Of a DNA stretch of 64,000 nucleotides, positions 968 through 63,984 are shown in pieces (within the stretch, counting starts at the first letter, position 1; the number at the start of each line of letters is the position of its first letter). The stretch lies in the IMG/VR virus record IMGVR_UViG_3300045988_149975, one strand, 5' to 3'. The stretch is from a virus. Below the pieces are notes generated by a model. The model worked only from the letters and a program-made list of their open reading frames with translations. It made no database searches and was not told where the DNA came from. A program made the translations under genes and the position numbers.

Positions 968-1103
968 ACAAGATTACCTCACCATTAATAAAATCTAAAT
1001 CATCAATGTATGTACAAAAATTTTCATATTTACTATCAATACTAATAAAACATTCTACATTCCCTTGCTTATCTCTTACTTCAATGAGTGCATCAATAAG
1101 TTC
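945..1103 (-). CDS. hypothetical protein (the tracker ORF runs to 1154; ATG at 1101-1103 with an AAGGAGAGG RBS is the likelier start)
   Basis: MKLNELIDALIEV... start is preceded by a strong RBS and overlaps the stop of the upstream methyltransferase. Confidence 0.4.
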   Translation of the reverse strand, partial: ELIDALIEVRDKQGNVECFISIDSKYENFCTYIDDLDFINGEVILYGETNEL

Positions 1104-1813
1104 ATTTAATTTCATTAGAAATCCTCTCCTTTGCAATGTTGAAATAATTTTCATCTTTTTCTATTCCAATAAACTTACGATTATTCTTTAAAGCTGCTAC
1201 ACCAGTGCTACCACTACCCATACAATTATCCAATACTACATCACCTTCACTTGTATAAGTCTTAATAAAGTATTCAAGCAATGCAACAGGTTTTTGTGTA
1301 GGATGTAATCTACATTTATCTTTATTAAAATCTAATACATCTACTGGATAGCGTTTTCCATCATTTACCGTTACTACTGATACTTGCTCTCCATAATTAC
1401 TACTACCTCTACCACTTTTGCAGGTATAAGGTTTCCCTTCTCTAAATTGTGGATGGTACGGGGGGGGAGGAATAGAATACTAAAATATTTTCATGGTTCT
1501 TTAAAGGCATTTTCTTTGCGTTTAAATGTCCTGTTCCCTGTGGTTTACGCCATATCCACTCATACTTGAGATTTTTGATATTGCTTACACCTAATACCTT
1601 ATCAAAAGGAGTCTGTGCAAAGAGTAGGATAGCACCATTATCTTTTATAATACGATTATATTCTTTCCACATTAAGTCCAAATCTATAACACTATCCCAT
1701 TTATTCCTTGTAGTACCAAAAGGCGGATCACAAAGAATTAAATTAACACACTTATCAGGTATATCTTTCATTACCTCTAAACAATCACCTAAATACAATT
1801 TTAGTTTATCCAT
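1090..1813 (-). pseudogene. DNA methyltransferase (beta-class N4/N6 type, DPPF motif), reading frame broken at a G8 homopolymer
   Basis: N-part ORF 1442..1813 carries CDPPFGTT. The C-part in another frame (about 1090..1459) reads ...KPYTCKSGRGS...HPTQKPVALLEYFIKTYTSEGDVVLDNCMGSGSTGVAALKNNRKFIGIEKDENYF, the classic AdoMet-binding region. The frame switch is at GGGGGGGG, 1460-1467 on the plus strand. Confidence 0.7.
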
Positions 1814-2373
1814 CTAACTACAGTTTCTCCTTTAAATCCCTTTTCCCAAATAAACCAAGCATAAGCAATCGCATTGGATGGGTATTTATCAAAATCACCA
1901 TTCTTTGCGCAAGAAAGCCTACCCCTTGCAACATATACATACTTTGGTGGATTTTCTTTATAAAATTCTCCACGCTCTTTGCCTTCTAAAAATTGAAGGC
2001 GTAAAAAGAACGCTACAGAGTTACCTTTAGGAATAATATCTAATGCGTGTTTCACAAATGGAAGTGCTTGTTTGTAAGGAGGATTAGAAACAATATCTCC
2101 GCCCCATTCAGTCACATCAAAGAAATTTTGTACCTTACCATATCCTCTATCATAAAGGTCAATACTTTCTACAATATAGTTAGCTTTTTCTAACTCTTTA
2201 CTGATATGCCCCTCACCACAACAACACTCTAAAATTTTCGGAGCAAATTTGTACTCTGCAAGTAGTAATTGTACTGCTTTAGGCTGTGTAGCATAGTAAT
2301 CCTCTAATTGCCTTTCTTCCCTTGAATGATTACTTGCACCAAGAGTTACATATACATTATGCTTTCCGTTCAT
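1801..2373 (-). CDS. DNA methyltransferase, probably N6-adenine (SNPPY motif)
   Basis: 190-aa ORF with ...GGDIVSNPPYKQALPFVKHA... catalytic motif IV. Confidence 0.55.
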   Translation of the reverse strand: MNGKHNVYVTLGASNHSREERQLEDYYATQPKAVQLLLAEYKFAPKILECCCGEGHISKELEKANYIVESIDLYDRGYGKVQNFFDVTEWGGDIVSNPPYKQALPFVKHALDIIPKGNSVAFFLRLQFLEGKERGEFYKENPPKYVYVARGRLSCAKNGDFDKYPSNAIAYAWFIWEKGFKGETVVRWIN

Positions 2374-2701
2374 ACTTAACCTCCAATTTTACTTTAGTGC
2401 TAAATTCAGAGTCTTTCAATGCTTCAATTCTTTCTTTCAAATACTTACAGCAATTTTCCTCTGTCATTGTTTTAATAAATTCGCAGTTCTGTAACAAAAC
2501 TTTCATTAAATAATCTTCAGTAGGGCAAAAATCGTACATTTTATCACTATGCGCTTTAAGCACATACCTATCGAATGTTACTGTTAAATCAGTAATATAG
2601 CTACTTCCATAATCACAAGTGGGGCAGCCTTTAAAGGCTTCTTTATCATAATCAATGTTTACAATACCACCGTCTACTAATTTCATTAAATAATCTTTCA
2701 T
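2357..2701 (-). CDS. hypothetical Cys-rich protein
   Basis: 114-aa ORF, CPTC and CC pairs. Confidence 0.4.
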   Translation of the reverse strand: MKDYLMKLVDGGIVNIDYDKEAFKGCPTCDYGSSYITDLTVTFDRYVLKAHSDKMYDFCPTEDYLMKVLLQNCEFIKTMTEENCCKYLKERIEALKDSEFSTKVKLEVKYERKA

Positions 2702-3214
2702 TTTTTAATCTCCTCAAATATAATTTGTTTTGGTAAAATATTATGACATACATATACGCTTGAAAACGGTGGATTAAGAGATGGTTTTTGTTCTCTATAA
2801 TCTTTGAAGTATGCAACTCTCTTATTAAAGTACATAATTTCAAAGTCATTATCTTTGAACATATTAAATCTCTTTTGGCTTTCAAATAATCCTACAACAC
2901 CTACAAGCATTGCAAAGGGTTTACCAATCTCAAACAGCCTTTGTAATACCTCGCCCTTTAAAGAATAGGGAGGATTACTTATAATATAATCACAATCAGG
3001 AATAGGCTCTTTAAAGAAATCTTTACCCTCATTTATATGTGAGTGTATAACCTCATTTCCCCCCCCCTAAAATCTTTACAAAATTCGACTCTTCAGTATC
3101 AAAGGGACACCAAATTGTAGAACCAGGTTTTAGATATTTAATTAAAGGTTCAATAGCATATACAGGAGTGTAAAATTCATCATTACCGCTGCTTGCCACT
3201 TTATCCATTTTCAT
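2698..3214 (-). pseudogene. Dam-like DNA N6-adenine methyltransferase (EFYTP...ISNPPY), frame broken at a C9/G9 homopolymer
   Basis: Upstream frame reads MKMDKVASSGNDEFYTPVYAIEPLIKYLKPGSTIWCPFDTEESNFVKIL. After the run CCCCCCCCC (plus 3059-3067) the frame continues ...DCDYIISNPPYSLKGEVLQRLFEIGKPFAMLVG...SLNPPF... (tracker ORF 2698..2910). Confidence 0.7.
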
Positions 3215-3558
3215 TCCTTATCATACCTTTCTACGTTAGGTTTATCAAAAGTTTCCCACTTATAAGCACGCCAACCAGTTATAATAGAACCGTTACTCGC
3301 TACTACATAACAAAAATCACATTGACGCATTGGTATTCTTACACACACTTTTATAATCTTATCACCACTCATTGCCATTTCAAAAACCATATTTTTTGAA
3401 AGTTTATCCTTTTGTACAAGCGGTAATCTTTTTTGTCTTGCCCTTACCATAAAATGATGAGTAAAATTTACCCTTTCAAAGCCATCCCAAAACTTCTGCA
3501 TATCTACTTTAGGCATAAATATATTTTTGTGATACAGTTTCATAATAACAACCTCCAA
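3211..3558 (-). CDS. hypothetical protein
   Basis: 115-aa ORF. Confidence 0.45.
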   Translation of the reverse strand: MEVVIMKLYHKNIFMPKVDMQKFWDGFERVNFTHHFMVRARQKRLPLVQKDKLSKNMVFEMAMSGDKIIKVCVRIPMRQCDFCYVVASNGSIITGWRAYKWETFDKPNVERYDKE

Positions 3559-3611
3559 TCTTTTCTATGGTTTTATTATACACTACTATTATCACTATGT
3601 CAATACCTTTT

Positions 3612-3643
3612 AATAAAAAAGCCGCCCAAAATCGAGCGGCTAT
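3612..3643 (-). terminator. rho-independent terminator (AGCCGC-loop-GCGGCT followed by U6 on the minus strand)
   Basis: Inverted repeat 3620-3641 with a plus-strand A-run 3614-3620, directly downstream of the minus-strand gene 3640..3951. Confidence 0.5.
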
Positions 3644-4302: not shown

Positions 4303-4331
4303 ATTATAACATATTTTTACTGAAATGTCAA
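4303..4331 (-). promoter_or_regulatory. sigma-70-type promoter: TTGACA, 17 nt, TATAAT, minus strand
   Basis: Minus-strand TTGACAtttcagtaaaaatatgtTATAAT; member of the conserved promoter family in this window. Confidence 0.5.
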
Positions 4332-4377: not shown

Positions 4378-5451
4378 CTATTCATTGTTTTTAAGTAAGA
4401 AATCAGGATTAATGACTTTAAAGGATATATCCTCTCTATAATTTCTTACAACAATACCTTCCCTATCTATATCATATAAAAGAGATTTACCTCTTGCTTT
4501 TTCTACAATATCATGAATAGTTGGGGGAAGTATAAAATCATTTGTAAGTACAGGAACATTGTTAAGCCCTAATTTTTTGCAGATAAAACTTGCCTTATCT
4601 TGTTCAATGCGTAAATCATCTATAATTACATTGTAAACAAAGAAGTCATATCCTGAAACATGATATTTATTTCCTTGTATAGATTTACCTATAATCTCAC
4701 CTTGTATTACTACTTTATTAGCATTATATGTTTTAGCTATATCTTTTAAACAATCTTTTAAACCAAAACGCCTTGCCACTTCCCAATATGGGGAATCATC
4801 TTCTTTTCTTAACCATACATTTCTACTGCATACACCAAATTTTCCTTCATTTAAAAAATATGTAGCACTACATCCGTCTAATTTTTCAGTCATATAGAAC
4901 TTAACATTGTCCTTATGCCATTTTTCATATTGATTAGGTAAATTTTGTACCCTTTCTTCATCTGTCTTATTACATATATTTACAGGAAATGAAGCATTTG
5001 TAGTTTTAAATTTCGCTAAAAGTTTTCTAAACCACCTGTATTTCATTAAAAACCGTAAAAATCTTGGGTAACTTACACTTTGTTTAATAAGTTTTGTTTC
5101 AGCTTCAGCCTGCGGGTCATATTTAGTTATACCAAGTTCTTTTGTAACATCATCACCGATTTCATGATAACTGCCCCTTAAATAACTAATAGGTAATACC
5201 AAACCTTGTGAAATTTGCTTCCTTAATTTAATAGTTCTTACCCTGTACTTTCTATCCTTCATAAAAGCAAATTCAGGACGAGGAGGCAAAATGGAATCTA
5301 CTTCTACAAAAATAACTTTATCCCCTACATTAAAATTATCAGATTTAGATACAACACATTCCCATCCCCTTACAGTAGCCTTGAGTATTCTATCCGCATT
5401 GGGAATAGGTTCTAAACTTTCAATTCTTGCTATAGTTGCTAATTTACGCAT
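4378..5451 (-). CDS. ATP-dependent RNA ligase (Rnl-type nucleotidyltransferase, KxDG motif)
   Basis: 357 aa; MRKLATIARIESLEPIPNADRI... OB-like N-terminus typical of DRB0094-type RNA ligases; lysine motif EKLDGCSATYF. Confidence 0.6.
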   Translation of the reverse strand: MRKLATIARIESLEPIPNADRILKATVRGWECVVSKSDNFNVGDKVIFVEVDSILPPRPEFAFMKDRKYRVRTIKLRKQISQGLVLPISYLRGSYHEIGDDVTKELGITKYDPQAEAETKLIKQSVSYPRFLRFLMKYRWFRKLLAKFKTTNASFPVNICNKTDEERVQNLPNQYEKWHKDNVKFYMTEKLDGCSATYFLNEGKFGVCSRNVWLRKEDDSPYWEVARRFGLKDCLKDIAKTYNANKVVIQGEIIGKSIQGNKYHVSGYDFFVYNVIIDDLRIEQDKASFICKKLGLNNVPVLTNDFILPPTIHDIVEKARGKSLLYDIDREGIVVRNYREDISFKVINPDFLLKNNE

Positions 5452-5461
5452 TTATTATACC

Positions 5462-7327
5462 TCACTTTACTACCTCTGCTTCAATAGGTTTTTCTTCTGT
5501 TAAAAGTGCTTCAAGTATTCCTCCGCTGCGTGGATTACTACCCTTTACAACGGTACTTTCTATAGTTCCACCTTTTACTACCGTTTTACTTACTGTTACA
5601 GGATTACCATTTACCTCATTCTGTAATTTATGTAGTTTTTCTAAATAACCCCATGCATCTTTCATTAAATCAGAAGTTCTTTCTGTAGCTATACCACCTT
5701 GTTGAGTTTCTTGTAAATATGATTTCTGTACTCTTTCCAAAGCTAAATCGGCTAAAGAAGTCATACCATCTATTACATCATCTTGATTACGAGTATTAAA
5801 CTTACGGAAAAGATTATCGTAAGCACAGATATATCCTGCTTGATATTCAGGACAATTAGTTGCTAATACGCACCTGTCACATGATAATCTTGCTATTGCT
5901 TTAGTAGAAATTTTCTTTTGTTTTCTTAATTTTTTAATACCTGCCTTAATATTACCGTCTTTATCATATATAGGTGTAATATCATTTCTAATAAGTTCTT
6001 TTTCTACCTCATCCTTATCATAACCTGCTGTAAGCAGCGCAGGAAGAAGTTTTCCACATTCCTCTCTTGATAACTCCACCTCTGTATACTCTTTATCTGT
6101 AATATACTGCTGACGCTCTAATGCTTTACGTTCATTATCTAAAGGCTCATGTAAATTCTGTAAAGCCCTCTCCTGTCCATTTAAAGCGTTTTTAAAAGCC
6201 TCTTTTAAGAAGGCTATACATTTATCCTTTGTATTATATTTAACACCCTCTGCGCCAAAATATGCGCAAATTTCAACTAAATCTTCAAGCTGATAAGCAT
6301 TTAAGTCTTTATTATTAATAAAGTTATAAAAATCTAATAATAAAGTAGTGCCAAAATCTTTAGGTACTTGTGTATCTATACCTGCTTCATCTAACTTATC
6401 TTCCCAATCGTTCATATCAGTTGAAAACCACTCATAAGAAGGTAACTTATACATCTTTCTATCACTCCAATACTTTTTAGGGAACATAACCTGTTTTACA
6501 TACTCTTCCATTTTCTTAAAAGCAATAGCTGATGCTTTCATAAGTTCAGTTGACGCTTCTATATCCAATAATTTAGGATTAAGTTTAAGTGCTTCTAACT
6601 TTCCACGATATTCCCCATCTTTCCATTGCTCTTTTTTCAACCTTTTAAGTTTACCACCTTCAAAATAGTTTACTTCCCCGAACTGTGAACCCGTAAGCCA
6701 ACTTGTCATATCAGCAGAGAAAAAAGGATGTTTGAGTAATAATTTATTACTTCCTACACCAAAACCATGTATTTTAGCTTTATTTTTGACTGCTATCTCA
6801 AAAAGTTTATCAATATACTCAATAGGATTATCTAAACTTGCGTTCATTTCAACAGCAGAAAAACCAACATAAGGATGTTTTCTACAAAGTTTATCAAAAT
6901 CCTCAAAGCTATCATCTAAATGATATACATATATTACAGGTATACCCTCTTCTTCTAAAGGCATAAAATATTCTTTACGCCATCTTTCTACAACATCTTT
7001 GCCAACAAGACTTGATAAGTCAAGTTCTACACAAGCAAAGATTAAATCTCTATGCTTTTTAACAAAGCCTATGTATTTCTTTAGATAATCTTCCCACCAC
7101 TCTACGCTTTTATCACGATATTGAGCGTCATTTATGAAAGTATGTGCGCCACTGTCAATAAGAAATTTCATTCCTTTTTTCTTGTATAACCGTTCTTCTA
7201 TCTCCTCTTTACCTCTACGCCTTATATAGTAATAAGACAATAATAAATTTTTAGTGACTGCACTTGCTATATCATAAATTTGTTTAGGCTCAACACCTGA
7301 TAAAAATAATGTAAATTCGCTTTTCAT
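5462..7327 (-). CDS. dpdA: DpdA-like protein: TGT-family (tRNA-guanine transglycosylase fold) N-terminal domain plus a roughly 350-aa C-terminal extension; candidate 7-deazaguanine DNA transglycosylase
   Basis: FLIDSGAHTF resembles the TGT LMTDSGGFQ motif and HGFGVGSNKLL resembles the TGT nucleophile region; queC and queE homologues lie nearby. Confidence 0.5.
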   Translation of the reverse strand: MKSEFTLFLSGVEPKQIYDIASAVTKNLLLSYYYIRRRGKEEIEERLYKKKGMKFLIDSGAHTFINDAQYRDKSVEWWEDYLKKYIGFVKKHRDLIFACVELDLSSLVGKDVVERWRKEYFMPLEEEGIPVIYVYHLDDSFEDFDKLCRKHPYVGFSAVEMNASLDNPIEYIDKLFEIAVKNKAKIHGFGVGSNKLLLKHPFFSADMTSWLTGSQFGEVNYFEGGKLKRLKKEQWKDGEYRGKLEALKLNPKLLDIEASTELMKASAIAFKKMEEYVKQVMFPKKYWSDRKMYKLPSYEWFSTDMNDWEDKLDEAGIDTQVPKDFGTTLLLDFYNFINNKDLNAYQLEDLVEICAYFGAEGVKYNTKDKCIAFLKEAFKNALNGQERALQNLHEPLDNERKALERQQYITDKEYTEVELSREECGKLLPALLTAGYDKDEVEKELIRNDITPIYDKDGNIKAGIKKLRKQKKISTKAIARLSCDRCVLATNCPEYQAGYICAYDNLFRKFNTRNQDDVIDGMTSLADLALERVQKSYLQETQQGGIATERTSDLMKDAWGYLEKLHKLQNEVNGNPVTVSKTVVKGGTIESTVVKGSNPRSGGILEALLTEEKPIEAEVVK

Positions 7328-7512
7328 CTATCAAAGGAACGGTATAAAGGATTACGGCGAAGCCTATCTACTCTCGAACTTAACCTATTCCATGTTCGCT
7401 GATTCCATGTCGGTCGATTTCGGCGTAAACGCCCTGTATCATTACGTTTAATGTCAATAGACACATCATTATTACTATTGCCTAATGTATTATAATCTTT
7501 TCTACTACCCAT
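7324..7512 (-). CDS. small Arg-rich ORF (62 aa) or a non-coding GC-rich spacer between dpdA and queC
   Basis: Locally GC-rich; repeated ACATGGAAT and GGCG...CGCC hairpins; the coding assignment is doubtful. Confidence 0.2.
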   Translation of the reverse strand: MGSRKDYNTLGNSNNDVSIDIKRNDTGRLRRNRPTWNQRTWNRLSSRVDRLRRNPLYRSFDR

Positions 7513-8090
7513 TATAATTCCCCCATTTCATTTTTAGTTAAATAGAATTTATATTTCTGTGCTTCTCGCCATTTACAGTCAGTACATTGTCCACAAGGCT
7601 CTCCTACATTATTTGCAAAATTACAGGAAAAAGTATCTTCTAAATTAACATTTAAAGAGCAGCCTATACGATACACTTCATCTTTATCCTTGTCTATAAA
7701 TGGTGCAATTACTTTATATTTGTCCTCAAATTCCACTCTTAAATAAGCATTTATAGCATCCACCCACTTTTGAGTAGTATCTATAAATTCTGTATTAGCA
7801 ATTAATCCTATATAAATATTAGCGTCCTTTGGATATACCCTATTAATTAATTCTAATACAAATCTTGCATTACGGCAAGGATTAAAACCATCTTTTTCAA
7901 TTTTGGAGCGCATTTTATCAAAATAATCAAACTCTTTATTCTCCAAAATTTCACCTACATTAATAAGTTTACTATCTGTATCTTCCATAATAAAGAAAAA
8001 TGTTTTAGGATTTAAACCTTTATGTTCCATCCATGCCTTCAACACTGTACTGTCATAACCATGACTCCATAATAAAAAATTATCTCTCAA
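7512..8090 (-). CDS. queC: QueC-like PP-loop ATPase (7-cyano-7-deazaguanine synthase family) with SGG changed to SHG
   Basis: FLLWSHGYDSTV aligns with the SGGxDS PP-loop; C-terminal CGQCTDCKWRE matches the QueC Zn site CGxCxxCxxR. Confidence 0.65.
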   Translation of the reverse strand: MRDNFLLWSHGYDSTVLKAWMEHKGLNPKTFFFIMEDTDSKLINVGEILENKEFDYFDKMRSKIEKDGFNPCRNARFVLELINRVYPKDANIYIGLIANTEFIDTTQKWVDAINAYLRVEFEDKYKVIAPFIDKDKDEVYRIGCSLNVNLEDTFSCNFANNVGEPCGQCTDCKWREAQKYKFYLTKNEMGEL

Positions 8091-8295
8091 TCCAAACTAC
8101 GCCCCTTTTCTTTCTATATTTTGTAACAAGAGTATATAAACTCTTTGTACCAAATATAAATACCTTATTAAAGTTGAAAGCATTAAGAATATCTATATCG
8201 CCACCATAAAAAATTTCAAAAGGTACATTAAACTTTTTACAGAAATTATAAACTGCCACAATATTTATGTCCCCTATACTGCAAAAGATATTCAT
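8080..8295 (-). CDS. hypothetical protein
   Basis: 71-aa ORF; start sits in an A9 run that separates it from a 30-codon upstream ORF. Confidence 0.3.
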   Translation of the reverse strand: MNIFCSIGDINIVAVYNFCKKFNVPFEIFYGGDIDILNAFNFNKVFIFGTKSLYTLVTKYRKKRGVVWIER

Positions 8296-8355
8296 TTTTT
8301 TTTGCCATTTAAGTGAAATTCAAGCACATCTGATATATCCTCTTCTGTCAAAATC

Positions 8356-12874: not shown

Positions 12875-12903
12875 ATTATACCACAAAATATCTAAAATGT
12901 CAA
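12875..12903 (-). promoter_or_regulatory. sigma-70-type promoter (TTGACA, 17 nt, TATAAT with TGG extended -10)
   Basis: Minus strand TTGACAttttagatattttgtggTATAAT, then GAGGTGAT and the start codon at 12856. Confidence 0.5.
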
Positions 12904-13545
12904 TTACTTTACATTTAAAATTTTATGTAATTGTATACCTATCCTGCCCTTTATACTTCCGTCCAGTAAAGTTTTATTTATAAGTTTTACAGATTCCTCA
13001 TTGTTATTAACTGGTGAAAGAATTATTTCTGCTTTTGTAGGATATTTCTTCAAAATCTTTTTAGCAAATTCAATATCCCTCTCATTATCAATCACAAACT
13101 TAACTTCATCATAGGATTTTAATACAGCTAAATTATTATACTTATTAAGCCCTTCTACACCACTACATGGACATTTTATATCCATTACATAATTATAGCT
13201 TCTTTTATAGTCATCACTATCTATATCTATAAGTCCGCTTGTTTCAATACTTACAATATATGAAAAAGATAAAAGTTCATAAATAAGCGGGTAAATATCA
13301 TTCTGTAATAAAGGCTCTCCACCTGTTAAACAAACATATTTATTACCTAATTTACTTACCTCTAACATAATTTTATCCAAACTCATTAAACTATAATTCT
13401 TACCCTCACAAGCATATATTGAATCACAATATCTACAAAATGGCTTTGCAACACATCCATAAAACCTAATAAAAGTAGTAGGATAGCCCGTATACTTCCC
13501 CTCACCTTGTATTGATGAAAAAATTTCAACTACTTTCATTTTCAT
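12904..13545 (-). CDS. queE: 7-carboxy-7-deazaguanine synthase QueE (radical SAM)
   Basis: VEIFSSIQGEGKYTGYPTTFIRFYGC...C..C motif, and LTGGEPLL. Confidence 0.75.
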   Translation of the reverse strand: MKMKVVEIFSSIQGEGKYTGYPTTFIRFYGCVAKPFCRYCDSIYACEGKNYSLMSLDKIMLEVSKLGNKYVCLTGGEPLLQNDIYPLIYELLSFSYIVSIETSGLIDIDSDDYKRSYNYVMDIKCPCSGVEGLNKYNNLAVLKSYDEVKFVIDNERDIEFAKKILKKYPTKAEIILSPVNNNEESVKLINKTLLDGSIKGRIGIQLHKILNVK

Positions 13546-23663: not shown

Positions 23664-23692
23664 ATTATATCATAAAATTACCAATTTGTCAA
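23664..23692 (-). promoter_or_regulatory. sigma-70-type promoter driving the HNH endonuclease gene
   Basis: Minus strand TTGACAaattggtaattttatgaTATAAT, then GGAGGTGAAAT and the ATG at 23642. Confidence 0.5.
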
Positions 23693-51289: not shown

Positions 51290-51930
51290 TTATTTTCCTT
51301 TTATCATCTTACCTGACCATAATTTAAAAAGTTCAGGTGTCATCTTTGGTAAATCGGAAACATCCTTATTAGGTTTTTTAGATGGATTTTCTACACTCAA
51401 ATGGTAGTCCAATAATGCGAAAATCTTTGCAGGAGAACTACTCCAAAATTCAATATCTGACATTTTAAGCACCCTCTTTGCAAAATAATAAAATGCTACC
51501 CAATCCCACTCACCATCATCATTGGAAAGAGTTTTCTTTAGTTTTTTCCGCTTTTAGGTGCTTTTTCTGTATTTTCAGGTAATGAAGAAGTAAGAGCATC
51601 TGTGATTACCTCTACAAGTTGTGTAATGTTTCGTGGTGTAAGATAAGAACCCAACTCTTTAGTTGAAATATCAACATCACTTGAAGCCATACCTGCCTTA
51701 ATAATATTAAGAATATCTATCATTCTTGCATTAACTGACATTGCTTCAAATGCTTTTTGAACAGACCCAAACTTCTCCTCTAACTCTGCAAAAGCGTTAA
51801 AATCATAAACTAATTCAATATCTTTACCACCCAAGCTAATAGTAACACCTTTAGCCTTAACAAGATTTAATTTACTCATATATTTATTACTCCATTCTTT
51901 TCTAACTTTTATACATATATTATACCACAA
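51290..51930 (-). CDS. tail assembly chaperone G-T fusion product via a -1 programmed frameshift
   Basis: The G frame ends ...APKSGKN* at 51538. The -1 frame is open from the slippery heptamer A_AAA_AAC (plus 51541-51547) through ORF 51290..51472. Confidence 0.5.
51538..51879 (-). CDS. tail assembly chaperone (gpG-like); start taken at the internal MSKLNLVKAKG...
   Basis: ISLGGKDIELVYDFNAFAELEEKFG matches the TAC signature; promoter just upstream. Confidence 0.6.
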   Translation of the reverse strand: MSKLNLVKAKGVTISLGGKDIELVYDFNAFAELEEKFGSVQKAFEAMSVNARMIDILNIIKAGMASSDVDISTKELGSYLTPRNITQLVEVITDALTSSLPENTEKAPKSGKN

Positions 51931-51947
51931 AAATTACATTTTGTCAA
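51919..51947 (-). promoter_or_regulatory. sigma-70-type promoter (TTGACA, 17 nt, TATAAT, TGG extended -10)
   Basis: Minus strand TTGACAaaatgtaatttttgtggTATAAT. Confidence 0.5.
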
Positions 51948-63955: not shown

Positions 63956-63984
63956 ATTATACCACAAAATTATTATTTTGTCAA
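63956..63984 (-). promoter_or_regulatory. sigma-70-type promoter (TTGACA, 17 nt, TATAAT, TGG extended -10) upstream of the structural gene block
   Basis: Minus strand TTGACAaaataataattttgtggTATAAT. Confidence 0.5.

Follow-up and report, generated by a model that had tools for sequence, protein, structure and literature searches.

Homopolymer tracts as probable phase-variation switches in two orphan DNA methyltransferase genes of an uncultured tailed phage

Introduction

Methyltransferase genes that are switched by slippage are known from bacteria, where the phase-variable methyltransferases of Type III, Type I and Type IIG systems constitute the phasevarions of Haemophilus, Neisseria, Helicobacter, Moraxella and Campylobacter (PMC12707154; PMC13076061). 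Phage-encoded cases, on the other hand, are barely documented. Hypermutable polyG tracts are reported from the Fletchervirus phages of Campylobacter (Sorensen et al., 2021, Cell Rep 35:109214, as cited in later work). Contingency loci have also been described from the coliphages T2 and T4, in which homopolymers within ORFs undergo reversible frameshifts through polymerase slippage, with bet-hedging as the proposed role (bioRxiv 10.1101/2025.10.21.683753); the word “methyltransferase” does not occur in the text of that preprint. A polyG tract within a methylase gene was reportedly recorded from Bordetella phage BPP-1 (Liu et al., 2004, J Bacteriol, as cited in that preprint).

Methyltransferases of phages are commonly regarded as a fixed defence against restriction. 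The Dam-type enzymes of T4 and P1 are phage orphan methyltransferases used against restriction. Gut phages encode many methyltransferases (PMC10477858), and the words “phase variation”, “homopolymer” and “frameshift” are absent from the text of that methylome paper. Here we analyse a 64,000-nt stretch of viral DNA (IMG/VR record IMGVR_UViG_3300045988_149975), hereafter termed the window, in which two of three methyltransferase genes are interrupted at long G/C homopolymers.

A methyltransferase operon in an uncultured phage

Genes for portal, terminase, tail, DNA polymerase, helicase and ribonucleotide reductase proteins mark the window as phage DNA; the source genome is an uncultured tailed phage of ~95-100 kb. 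Its GC content is 32.8%, with 11.8% G and 21.0% C on the + strand, and no tRNA genes were found in the window. Megablast of positions 1000-3300 against 50,697 cultured-phage records returned no close relative, the sole match being 95 nt in a Bacillus phage methyltransferase gene, and the best match of the portal protein, from Bacillus phage BCD7, is at most 35% identical. The hosts are probably gut Bacillota (Firmicutes).

All three methyltransferase genes lie in one operon on the minus strand, headed by a sigma-70-type promoter (3575..3603, minus strand) with a perfect TTGACA box, a 17-nt spacer and TATAAT. Seven perfect matches of this type occur across the window, every one on the minus strand; chance would give 0.06. 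An intrinsic-terminator-like hairpin (3620-3641) lies just upstream of the operon promoter. The first ORF (3211..3558, minus strand; 115 aa, phrog_24108) is of unknown function and has a stop that shares bases with the start codon of gene C (2698..3214, minus strand), a small NPPY DNA methyltransferase gene that is split here and encodes 171 aa when in frame. The next ORF (2357..2701, minus strand; 114 aa, phrog_20043), also of unknown function, begins with an ATG that overlaps the gene C stop (ATGA), an arrangement that points to translational coupling, and the order of genes around it is kept in relatives. It is followed by gene B (1801..2373, minus strand), an intact 190-aa NPPY methyltransferase without a homopolymer tract (PHROG 799, E 2e-60), and by gene A (1102..1813, minus strand), a beta-class N6/N4 DNA methyltransferase with a DPPF motif (PF01555), again split here. 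Only these three among the window ORFs carry a (D/N/S)PP(Y/F/W) motif. The neighbours of the methyltransferases are small unknown proteins and another methyltransferase, and no restriction or specificity subunit was found among the neighbouring ORFs. Genes A and C are orphan DNA methyltransferases and not part of a Type I, III or IIG system.

Two G/C tracts at the frame breaks

Because the genes lie on the minus strand, the G8 run of the + strand at 1460..1467 is read as C8 in gene A, where it encodes the Pro run of FYSSPP(P)YHPQF, and the C9 run at 3059..3067 is read as G9 in gene C, where it encodes a Gly-Gly-Gly loop. A preliminary description, made from the sequence alone, had judged the two runs unlikely to arise by chance, and the counts bear this out: no other G/C run in the 64,000 bases exceeds 5 nt. 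Since all remaining G/C runs are exactly 5 nt, the run-length distribution is bimodal. Under iid and first-order Markov models of the + strand, 0.002-0.015 G runs of at least 8 nt and 0.04-0.07 C runs of at least 9 nt are expected. The tracts are further built from the rarest codons for their amino acids, CCC making up 6.9% of Pro codons and GGG 8.9% of Gly codons; in the 44 other ORFs, CCC-CCC is used at none of 15 Pro-Pro pairs and GGG-GGG at none of 76 Gly-Gly pairs.

The tracts were also said to sit exactly at frame breaks, as they do. The upstream frame of gene A (MDKL...ILVFYSSPP) stops at 1442 after 123 aa (fragment 1442-1813), and the downstream frame (...YHPQFREGKPY...ISNEIK) runs to its stop at 1102; C7 or C10 restores the frame. 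In gene C, the upstream frame (MKMDKV...FVKILGGG) stops at 3053 after 53 aa (fragment 3053-3214), the downstream frame (NEVIHSH...FEEIKK) runs to its stop at 2698, and the frame is restored by G8 or G11, the G9 of the window being OFF. An A3 run (3056..3058, minus strand) directly follows the G tract in the coding direction and belongs to the variable segment of gene C, because the nearest in-frame relatives have A2 there.

A third switch was suspected from an A9 run (8295-8303) and a truncated match to QueC. This candidate was rejected: the A9 run is intergenic, and the QueC-like ORF (7512-8090) is complete and has a degenerate P-loop (SHGYDS).

Length alleles in near-identical genomes

Retrieval of relatives by exact-protein look-up was far more productive than a metagenome scan. 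With repaired gene A as query, the scan yielded a single member of the lineage (L292) among its best 80 matches, because frameshifted relatives score as split hits and drop below that limit. Pattern scans of IMG/VR with the tract flanks returned only two relatives, both recovered before. As a separate observation, phages and prophages of Oscillospiraceae hold up to 9 tracts per 6.5 kb, and tract-length changes are the only indels between near-identical contigs of that group.

Homopolymers of 8-9 nt are error-prone on several sequencing platforms, and the removal of one base would repair either site, so the true tracts might be in frame and the frameshifts mere miscalls of sequencing or assembly, an alternative that the preliminary description had itself raised. 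The relatives speak against it. A separately assembled Logan contig (L314, from run SRR2992900) matches the window with 100% identity across 6,813 nt and has the same C8 and G9+AAA, and the 53-aa gene C stub of the window has been called on 9 contigs from different samples. Tract lengths of gene A range from C7 to C13 in relatives and include three in-frame lengths, a spread too wide for miscalls, while the nearest ON alleles of gene C leave the G run unchanged and differ in the adjoining A run of 2-3 nt (G9+AA versus G9+AAA in the window), a context that is not error-prone. In addition, A/T runs of 7 nt within long ORFs (up to 1,597 aa) are all in frame without breaks. We consider the artefact reading largely refuted already and give it next to no chance.

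The length differences stand out where little else has changed. A contig 97.3% identical to the window over 8.2 kb (L303) has 223 substitutions and two internal indels, both at the tracts, and there both genes are intact (gene C 171 aa, gene A 237 aa). Two others (L306 and L307) are set apart by a single substitution in 2,726 nt and by C9 versus C8, and the sole real indel between L315 and L319 is C8 versus C7. One contig 99.8% identical to the window (L308) has a single gap of 1 nt, matching C9 versus C8, and one at 99.4% (L331) has only two gaps, 6 nt in total, matching G10 versus G9 and C13 versus C8. The tracts are thus indel hotspots, polymorphic in length between near-identical assemblies. 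All four ON/OFF combinations of genes A and C were found among about 45 related contigs. Run SRR10499494, for instance, has the ON/ON state, and in run SRR14630075 gene C is OFF while gene A carries C13.

Gene A: alleles and enzyme family

At the DNA level the gene A tract occurs as C7, C8, C9, C10 and C13. Three of these lengths are ON (C7, 236 aa; C10, 237 aa; C13, 238 aa), and both other frames are OFF (C8, 123 aa; C9, 146 aa). Exact in-frame versions of the gene A protein of the window are public: within this one protein background the tract encodes PP (P0122, 236 aa), PPP (P0121, 237 aa) or PPPP (P0127, 238 aa; 7 contigs). The 90%-identity cluster, with 93 members, holds the in-frame forms together with truncations of 123, 124 and 146 aa. 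The suspicion that the annotated ORFs understate the true genes was therefore well founded, with full-length versions of 236/237/238 aa for gene A and of 171 aa for gene C present in close relatives.

Repaired gene A matches Pfam N6_N4_Mtase (PF01555) with E 8e-33 and 114.6 bits, above the cut-off of 26.7, and covers model positions 1-221 of 221. The catalytic motif CDPPFG (residues 28-33) precedes a SAM-binding-type motif, DNCMGSGST, near the C-terminus; this order, together with a score above the gathering threshold, places the protein in the beta class, whose solved relatives include CcrM, DpnA, M.RsrI and M.MboIIA.

Some relatives can dispense with gene A. Three lack it altogether (L334, L335, L349), a 108-nt in-frame deletion has removed its SAM-binding motif in L040/L292, and in L347 a mosaic allele without a tract takes its place. 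Of the loci retrieved by way of gene C, 9 carry gene A in the ON state and 19 in the OFF state; this 32% ON equals the expectation for random tract lengths, so that no current selection for ON is visible at gene A.

Gene C: alleles, fold and recurrent tracts

In-frame gene C alleles occur in nature at 94-99% identity to the window (P0001-P0004), and the products in the cluster of 50 measure 168-172 aa when ON and 53-60 aa when OFF. Tract lengths of G7, G9 and G10 are found in relatives. The alleles with the AAA flank, a set retrieved by the exact OFF product, carry G9 or G10 and are both OFF. The site is also common to relatives of 75-79% identity, one of which has G8 (L158, ON) and another G7 (L168, OFF).

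Repaired gene C has the NPPY motif and matches PHROG 799, “DNA methyltransferase” (E 8e-33); its match to EcoRI_methylase (PF13651) is weak, scoring 30.8 bits (cut-off 26.4) and spanning just 65 of the 345 positions of the model. The NCBIfam search gave no match, and a sequence search of solved structures gave nothing meaningful. An AlphaFold2 model (pLDDT 85) comes closest to gamma-class N6-adenine methyltransferases, namely PacII and the HsdM domains of Type I systems, with a TM of only ~0.5. Because the fold search of gene C thus returns only generic gamma-class/Rossmann methyltransferases, no target motif can be predicted.

In the model, the Gly-Gly-Gly stretch is predicted to lie in a surface loop between the helix at 44-50 and the strand at 54-57. 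Gene C homologues from other gut Clostridia phages carry tracts at nt ~47, 81-89, 148-152, 192-198 and 240, all five of which fall in loops of the same model. Frame-keeping as well as frame-breaking lengths occur at four of the five sites, the tract at nt 240 (C7, L125) being seen only in frame. Mutability has evolved repeatedly across the gene C homologues.

Selection and the reading frame

A stretch of frameshifted genes may simply be decaying, with the inactivating mutations happening to fall in the tracts. Both genes are indeed OFF in the window and in the first three relatives recovered (contigs 142217, 161036 and ERZ827088), the losses and internal deletions of gene A in several relatives fit such decay, and an ON fraction of about one third is what is expected without selection. 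Substitution patterns point the other way. In comparisons of the window with its relatives, dN/dS is 0.03-0.07 on either side of each tract, with dS of 0.25-0.72 downstream, values impossible for a permanently frameshifted gene; under neutrality, non-synonymous changes as few as these have a probability of 3e-9 in the downstream part of gene A and of 1.5e-14 in the downstream part of gene C. Strong purifying selection thus acts on both halves of genes A and C. Intact alleles with an identical protein exist, the frameshifts in both genes are confined to the tracts, the tracts use the rarest codons, and they recur at five different loops across the family. That the two genes are pseudogenes is therefore very improbable.

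Another way to reconcile selection with an interrupted frame is programmed recoding, in which RNA polymerase slippage or ribosomal frameshifting makes the full-length enzyme from “OFF” DNA. Long homopolymers can cause transcriptional slippage, as is established for A/T runs, and selection maintains the genes although many alleles in the sample are out of frame. That said, G/C runs slip much less than A/T runs, and programmed sites have a fixed length and offset, whereas gene A occurs as C8, C9 and C10, in all three frames, among near-identical genomes. Some relatives would need a correction of -1 and others one of +1. Tract length and required correction vary among close relatives, which is not the behaviour of a programmed frameshift, and we regard recoding as very improbable as the explanation of these alleles. 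It could still act on top of switching at the DNA level.

Probable slipped-strand contingency loci in a DNA-modification operon

We conclude that both tracts are very probably slipped-strand contingency loci in two orphan methyltransferase genes of a DNA-modification operon. Four of the features that define SSR contingency loci are present: a repeat in excess of expectation, a change of frame, length polymorphism and a gene kept by selection. Phase variation by slippage, as proposed in the preliminary description, accords with the ON/OFF alleles in near-identical genomes and with the purifying selection on both gene halves.

Slipped-strand mispairing during DNA replication would add or remove G:C pairs within the tracts, and because the tracts lie inside the reading frames, their length decides between a full methyltransferase and an N-terminal stub, of 53 aa for gene C and of 123 or 146 aa for gene A. 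The tracts encode Gly or Pro stretches, proteins of working length result from several in-frame lengths, and the Pro tract of gene A presumably sits in a surface loop. Each of the two switches varies independently of the other, the window genome being OFF/OFF. An OFF gene C may have a further effect, since its frameshift ends translation ~350 nt before the next start and may thus lower expression of the coupled downstream genes.

Switching would keep genomes with differing methylation patterns in the phage population at all times. Once methylated, a genome would be safe from restriction-modification systems that act at sites covered by the enzyme, and a genome left unmethylated would be spared methylation-dependent (Type IV) restriction or some other cost of methylation. 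We infer that the phage thereby hedges the methylation of its DNA against restriction by the host.

The chances seem to us evenly balanced that the locus belongs to a wider class, in which gut Clostridia phages carry “epigenetic contingency islands”, clusters of DNA-modification genes with one to several polyG/polyC switches that hedge against restriction-modification and modification-dependent defences. The island genes would be N6-adenine and C5-cytosine methyltransferases and PAPS-reductase-like enzymes, the population would continuously make combinatorial DNA-modification states, and the window would be the two-switch version. We found no description of such islands in Clostridia phages in the searchable literature.

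If phage methyltransferases can be stochastic switches, gene callers under-count them by splitting them into stubs, and the methylome of a phage “species” is a property of the population and not a fixed trait. The trade-off between evading classical restriction, by methylating, and methylation-dependent restriction, by staying unmethylated, would then become testable. That many gut Clostridia phages and prophages bear this signature points to a widespread, undescribed layer of phage-host conflict in the human gut, and in prophages it may be a source of epigenetic heterogeneity in the bacterial host.

Comparison with known systems

With phasevarions the locus has in common an in-ORF repeat that slips, a methyltransferase that is turned ON and OFF, the tolerance of several in-frame lengths, and combinatorial methylomes from independent switches. 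It differs from them in that the genes are phage-borne and orphan, without an adjoining restriction or specificity subunit, and in that the two enzymes come from other families, gene A encoding a small beta-class PF01555 protein and gene C an NPPY protein of 171 aa. What is diversified here is presumably the phage's own DNA and not a bacterial regulon.

Among phage systems, the Fletchervirus tracts are reported to be similar, with 7-11 G in ORFs of a phage genome that is likewise AT-rich, ON/OFF subpopulations and bet-hedging. They reportedly lie in receptor-binding protein genes and alter host recognition, whereas the tracts here lie in DNA methyltransferase genes; the host there is Campylobacter and here probably gut Bacillota. 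The runs of T2 and T4 are mostly short (6 nt or more), typical of AT-rich genomes, and spread over many gene classes, in contrast to the composition-defying G/C runs confined to DNA-modification genes in our phage. The polyG tract reported from the BPP-1 methylase gene is the nearest precedent for a tract in a phage methylase. According to the preprint citing that work, it was noted but neither termed a contingency locus nor studied further, and no population allelic series, selection analysis or multi-gene combination is known to have been published for it. Finally, genes A and C resemble other phage orphan methyltransferases in standing alone, several to a genome, in a DNA-modification region; while the known ones are treated as constitutively functional, those described here are very probably switchable.

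Homopolymeric Tracts in the Methyltransferase Operon

Three DNA methyltransferase genes, here termed A, B and C, lie on the minus strand, and homopolymeric tracts split two of them. Gene A (1102–1813, split at C8) matches the whole Pfam N6_N4_Mtase model (E 8e-33) and carries the motif DPPF; because its nearest solved relatives are CcrM, DpnA, M.RsrI and M.MboIIA, it was assigned to the beta-class amino-methyltransferases. Gene B (1801–2373), intact with 190 aa, and gene C (2698–3214, split at G9) both carry an NPPY motif and match PHROG 799 “DNA methyltransferase” (E 2e-60 and 8e-33, respectively), gene C also giving a weak, partial match to EcoRI_methylase. An AlphaFold2 model of P0001, a natural protein 99% identical to gene C, has a Rossmann methyltransferase fold (pLDDT 85), and its nearest solved folds are the gamma-class N6-adenine enzymes PacII and Type I HsdM, with a TM of only ~0.5. 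A (D/N/S)PP(Y/F/W) motif was not found in any further ORF of the window. Together with two small ORFs of unassigned function, the three genes form a single compact unit, where stop and start codons overlap at every junction. The unit is headed by a perfect TTGACA-17-TATAAT promoter (3575–3603, minus strand), with a terminator-like hairpin directly upstream of it (3620–3641). In related contigs a C5-cytosine methyltransferase of 359 aa (PF00145), the fourth such enzyme, is encoded ~2 kb downstream of gene A (9286–10365 in L303, 7884–8963 in L313) and would fall beyond the window's left edge; its gene contains no long G/C run in L303, and the L316 version is reduced to 213 aa.

Sequence and three-frame translation confirmed what the preliminary description had claimed, that G8 at 1460–1467 and C9 at 3059–3067 (C8 in gene A and G9 in gene C on the coding strand) each sit exactly at a methyltransferase frame break, one reading frame ending exactly where another begins. 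The 5′ frame of gene A gives 123 aa ending in “...FYSSPPVPSTI*” and the downstream sequence continues in another frame as “...PPYHPQFREGK...ISNEIK*”, while in gene C a 53-aa frame ending in “...KILGGGK*” is followed by “...GGNEVIHSH...FEEIKK*”. Either frame is restored by the loss of one base or the gain of two, and the window genome is OFF at both sites (frame broken, leaving a short N-terminal stub), a single base from ON (full frame) at each. The tracts are the sole G/C runs longer than 5 nt in the 64 kb, all remaining ones being 5 nt. At 32.8% GC, and with a strongly skewed strand composition (11.8% G vs. 21.0% C on the plus strand), 0.002–0.015 G runs of at least 8 nt and 0.04–0.07 C runs of at least 9 nt are expected, in line with the earlier view that both are improbable by chance in an AT-rich genome. 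The window's longest homopolymer is A9 (8295–8303, coding strand), between ORFs upstream of a QueC-like gene; it was rejected as a gene-breaking tract, as it is intergenic and interrupts no gene.

ON and OFF Alleles in Related Genomes

One comparison came from L303 (ENA ERZ28596758), a 97.9 kb contig with the same gene order. Over 8.2 kb it shares 97.3% identity with the window (223 substitutions), and apart from one internal indel at each of the two tracts the alignment is free of internal gaps. Both genes are intact there, gene C with 171 aa (G9 followed by AA vs. AAA in the window) and gene A with 237 aa (C10 vs. C8), so the annotated ORFs indeed understate the genes. An exact-sequence look-up in public assemblies recovered the window's own gene A protein in PP (236 aa), PPP (237 aa) and PPPP (238 aa, 7 contigs) forms. 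These forms also occur in the 90%-identity cluster of gene A (93 members), together with truncations of 123, 124 and 146 aa, and the gene C cluster (50 members) holds forms of 168–172 aa and stubs of 57–60 aa.

For this phage lineage, we tabulated the tracts of ~45 loci recovered from many metagenomes. For gene A with the flank GTAC, C8 and C9 are OFF and C10 and C13 ON, C7 ON being deduced from the 236-aa protein P0122 outside the tabulated loci; with AATAT, C9 is ON and C7, C8 and C10 are OFF. For gene C, G9 and G10 are OFF with AAATGAG, G9 is ON with AATGAG, G7 is ON and G9 OFF with AGAATAGG, G7 is OFF with AATAGG, and G9 is OFF with AGAATAAG. All four combinations of gene A and gene C states were found. 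Near-identical pairs differ in length at the tract alone: L306 and L307 by one substitution in 2,726 nt plus C9 vs. C8, L315 and L319 by C8 vs. C7, and L308, which shares 99.8% identity with the window, has one 1-nt gap against it, consistent with C9 in L308 vs. C8 in the window. Retrieval by exact protein sequence skews allele frequencies of the queried gene; loci fetched through gene C, an unbiased sample for the state of gene A, comprised 9 ON and 19 OFF.

The region of gene A (equivalent to window 1102–1813) is also a variable cassette among relatives. It is missing from L334, L335 and L349, reduced to a 50-aa ORF in L345, and lacks 108 nt including the SAM-binding motif in L040/L292, while in L347 its N-terminal two thirds are swapped for a different methyltransferase sequence with a DLPY motif and without the tract.

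Artefact, Pseudogene or Recoding

Homopolymer sequencing error, which the preliminary description had offered as an alternative, is very unlikely, as is assembly artefact. An independent assembly (L314, run SRR2992900) is 100% identical over 6,813 nt, both tracts included; gene calling gave the window's 53-aa stub of gene C on 9 contigs of different samples and its 123-aa stub of gene A on 4; and no frame break occurs in the window's long ORFs (largest 1,597 aa), even at the 7-nt A/T runs within them. Decay into pseudogenes is likewise very unlikely, given dN/dS of 0.03–0.07 between the window and relatives, both upstream and downstream of the tracts. Downstream, gene A has 15 synonymous and 2 non-synonymous changes (probability under neutrality 3e-9) and gene C 30 and 10 (1.5e-14), and these parts therefore cannot be permanently out of frame. 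The substitution pattern shows that both putative enzymes have been maintained as functional over evolutionary time. Programmed recoding, in which RNA polymerase slippage or ribosomal frameshifting would yield the full-length enzyme from OFF DNA, is an unlikely main mechanism, given that tract lengths in all three frames occur and the correction needed differs from relative to relative; it is possible as an additional effect.

What the comparisons show is that the tracts behave as hotspots of replication slippage, their length setting the reading frame. The phase-variation reading of the preliminary description was thus supported, with ON and OFF tract lengths in near-identical genomes and both genes under purifying selection, all of this evidence coming from comparison between consensus assemblies.

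Possible Selection for Mutability and Multi-Tract Relatives

There are signs in codon usage and site recurrence that tract mutability itself may be under selection. The tracts consist of the genome's rarest synonymous codons, CCC making up 6.9% of Pro and GGG 8.9% of Gly codons; outside the tracts, CCC-CCC occurs in 0 of 15 Pro-Pro pairs and GGG-GGG in 0 of 76 Gly-Gly pairs. Among gene C homologs at large, five sites bear G/C tracts (“YTPPY”, “YLPPPP”, “LGGG”, “SGGDFF” and “SNPPY”), all in predicted loops. Four have both in-frame and out-of-frame lengths in public contigs and cultured Clostridia genomes (including Flintibacter muris, Dysosmobacter segnis and Hominicoprocola fusiformis), and “SNPPY” (C7, L125) has the in-frame length only. 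The window's own gene C site is common to relatives of 75–79% identity, as G8 (ON) in L158 and G7 (OFF) in L168.

Relatives of gene C in 65–140 kb Oscillospiraceae phages and prophages bear 5–9 polyG/polyC tracts per 6.5 kb. Such loci came from IMG/VR (L082, L084, L102, L123–L146) and from Flintibacter, Dysosmobacter, Hominicoprocola and other Oscillospiraceae genomes (L147, L151, L157, L165, L166). Their tracts lie in N6-adenine methyltransferase, C5-cytosine methyltransferase (several in one ORF) and PAPS-reductase-like genes, and run lengths are bimodal, either 5 nt or 7–10 nt. Between L127 and L129 there are 6 substitutions over 6,515 nt, and 5 of the 9 tracts differ in length; no other indels separate them. 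At most of the recurrent sites, some contigs carry an ON length and others an OFF length, and fully open multi-tract ORFs occur in cultured isolates.

Genomic Surroundings and Possible Role

The window element is a tailed phage (portal, terminase, tail proteins, PolA-type DNA polymerase, DnaB-like helicase, ribonucleotide reductase) only distantly related to every cultured phage. All ORFs of at least 150 aa in the 64 kb are on the minus strand, and no tRNA genes were found in the window. Seven perfect TTGACA-N17-TATAAT promoters (116–144, 3575–3603, 4303–4331, 12875–12903, 23664–23692, 51919–51947 and 63956–63984), against 0.06 expected by chance, all lie on this coding strand, 5 of them with TG directly before the −10 hexamer.

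A 7-deazaguanine DNA-modification module likely adjoins the operon, as judged from minus-strand homologs: a 621-aa DpdA-like ORF (5462–7327; PHROG 887 “queuine tRNA-ribosyltransferase”, E 1e-65), a 192-aa QueC-like ORF with a degenerate P-loop SHGYDS (7512–8090) and a radical-SAM protein, possibly QueE-like (12904–13545). A 357-aa RNA ligase with PHA02142 OB-fold and RNA_ligase domains is also encoded (4378–5451, minus strand); in L323, L324, L327 and L347 it has 720 aa (first ORF), with an intein containing a LAGLIDADG endonuclease. Since the operon's neighbors encode a DpdA-like transglycosylase and a QueC-like protein, the region resembles a DNA-modification/anti-restriction island, which looks like a fit to the idea of hedging by methylation. 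The switches would diversify methylation of the phage's own DNA, classical restriction favoring methylated genomes and modification-dependent restriction or other costs favoring unmethylated ones. The gene C frameshift may also lower expression of the coupled downstream genes.

Comparison with Known Systems

Bacterial contingency loci and phasevarions have been reviewed (PMC12707154; PMC13076061), and phage-encoded phase-variable methyltransferases are mentioned neither in these reviews of methyltransferase phase variation nor in the main gut-phage methylome study (PMC10477858). Phage precedents for such tracts are few: polyG tracts are known in receptor-binding genes of Campylobacter phages (Sorensen et al. 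2021, Cell Rep 35:109214), and a preprint on homopolymer contingency loci in ORFs of coliphages T2 and T4 (bioRxiv 10.1101/2025.10.21.683753) mentions in passing one in a methylase gene of Bordetella phage BPP-1. The multi-tract DNA-modification clusters of Oscillospiraceae phages and prophages appear to be undescribed so far. The switches in the window are well supported by a natural allelic series as probable cases of the known mechanism by which contingency loci and phasevarions of bacteria operate. Bacterial phasevarions, however, belong to restriction-modification systems, whereas genes A and C are orphan genes of a phage, lacking a restriction partner, and therefore fall outside the phasevarions.
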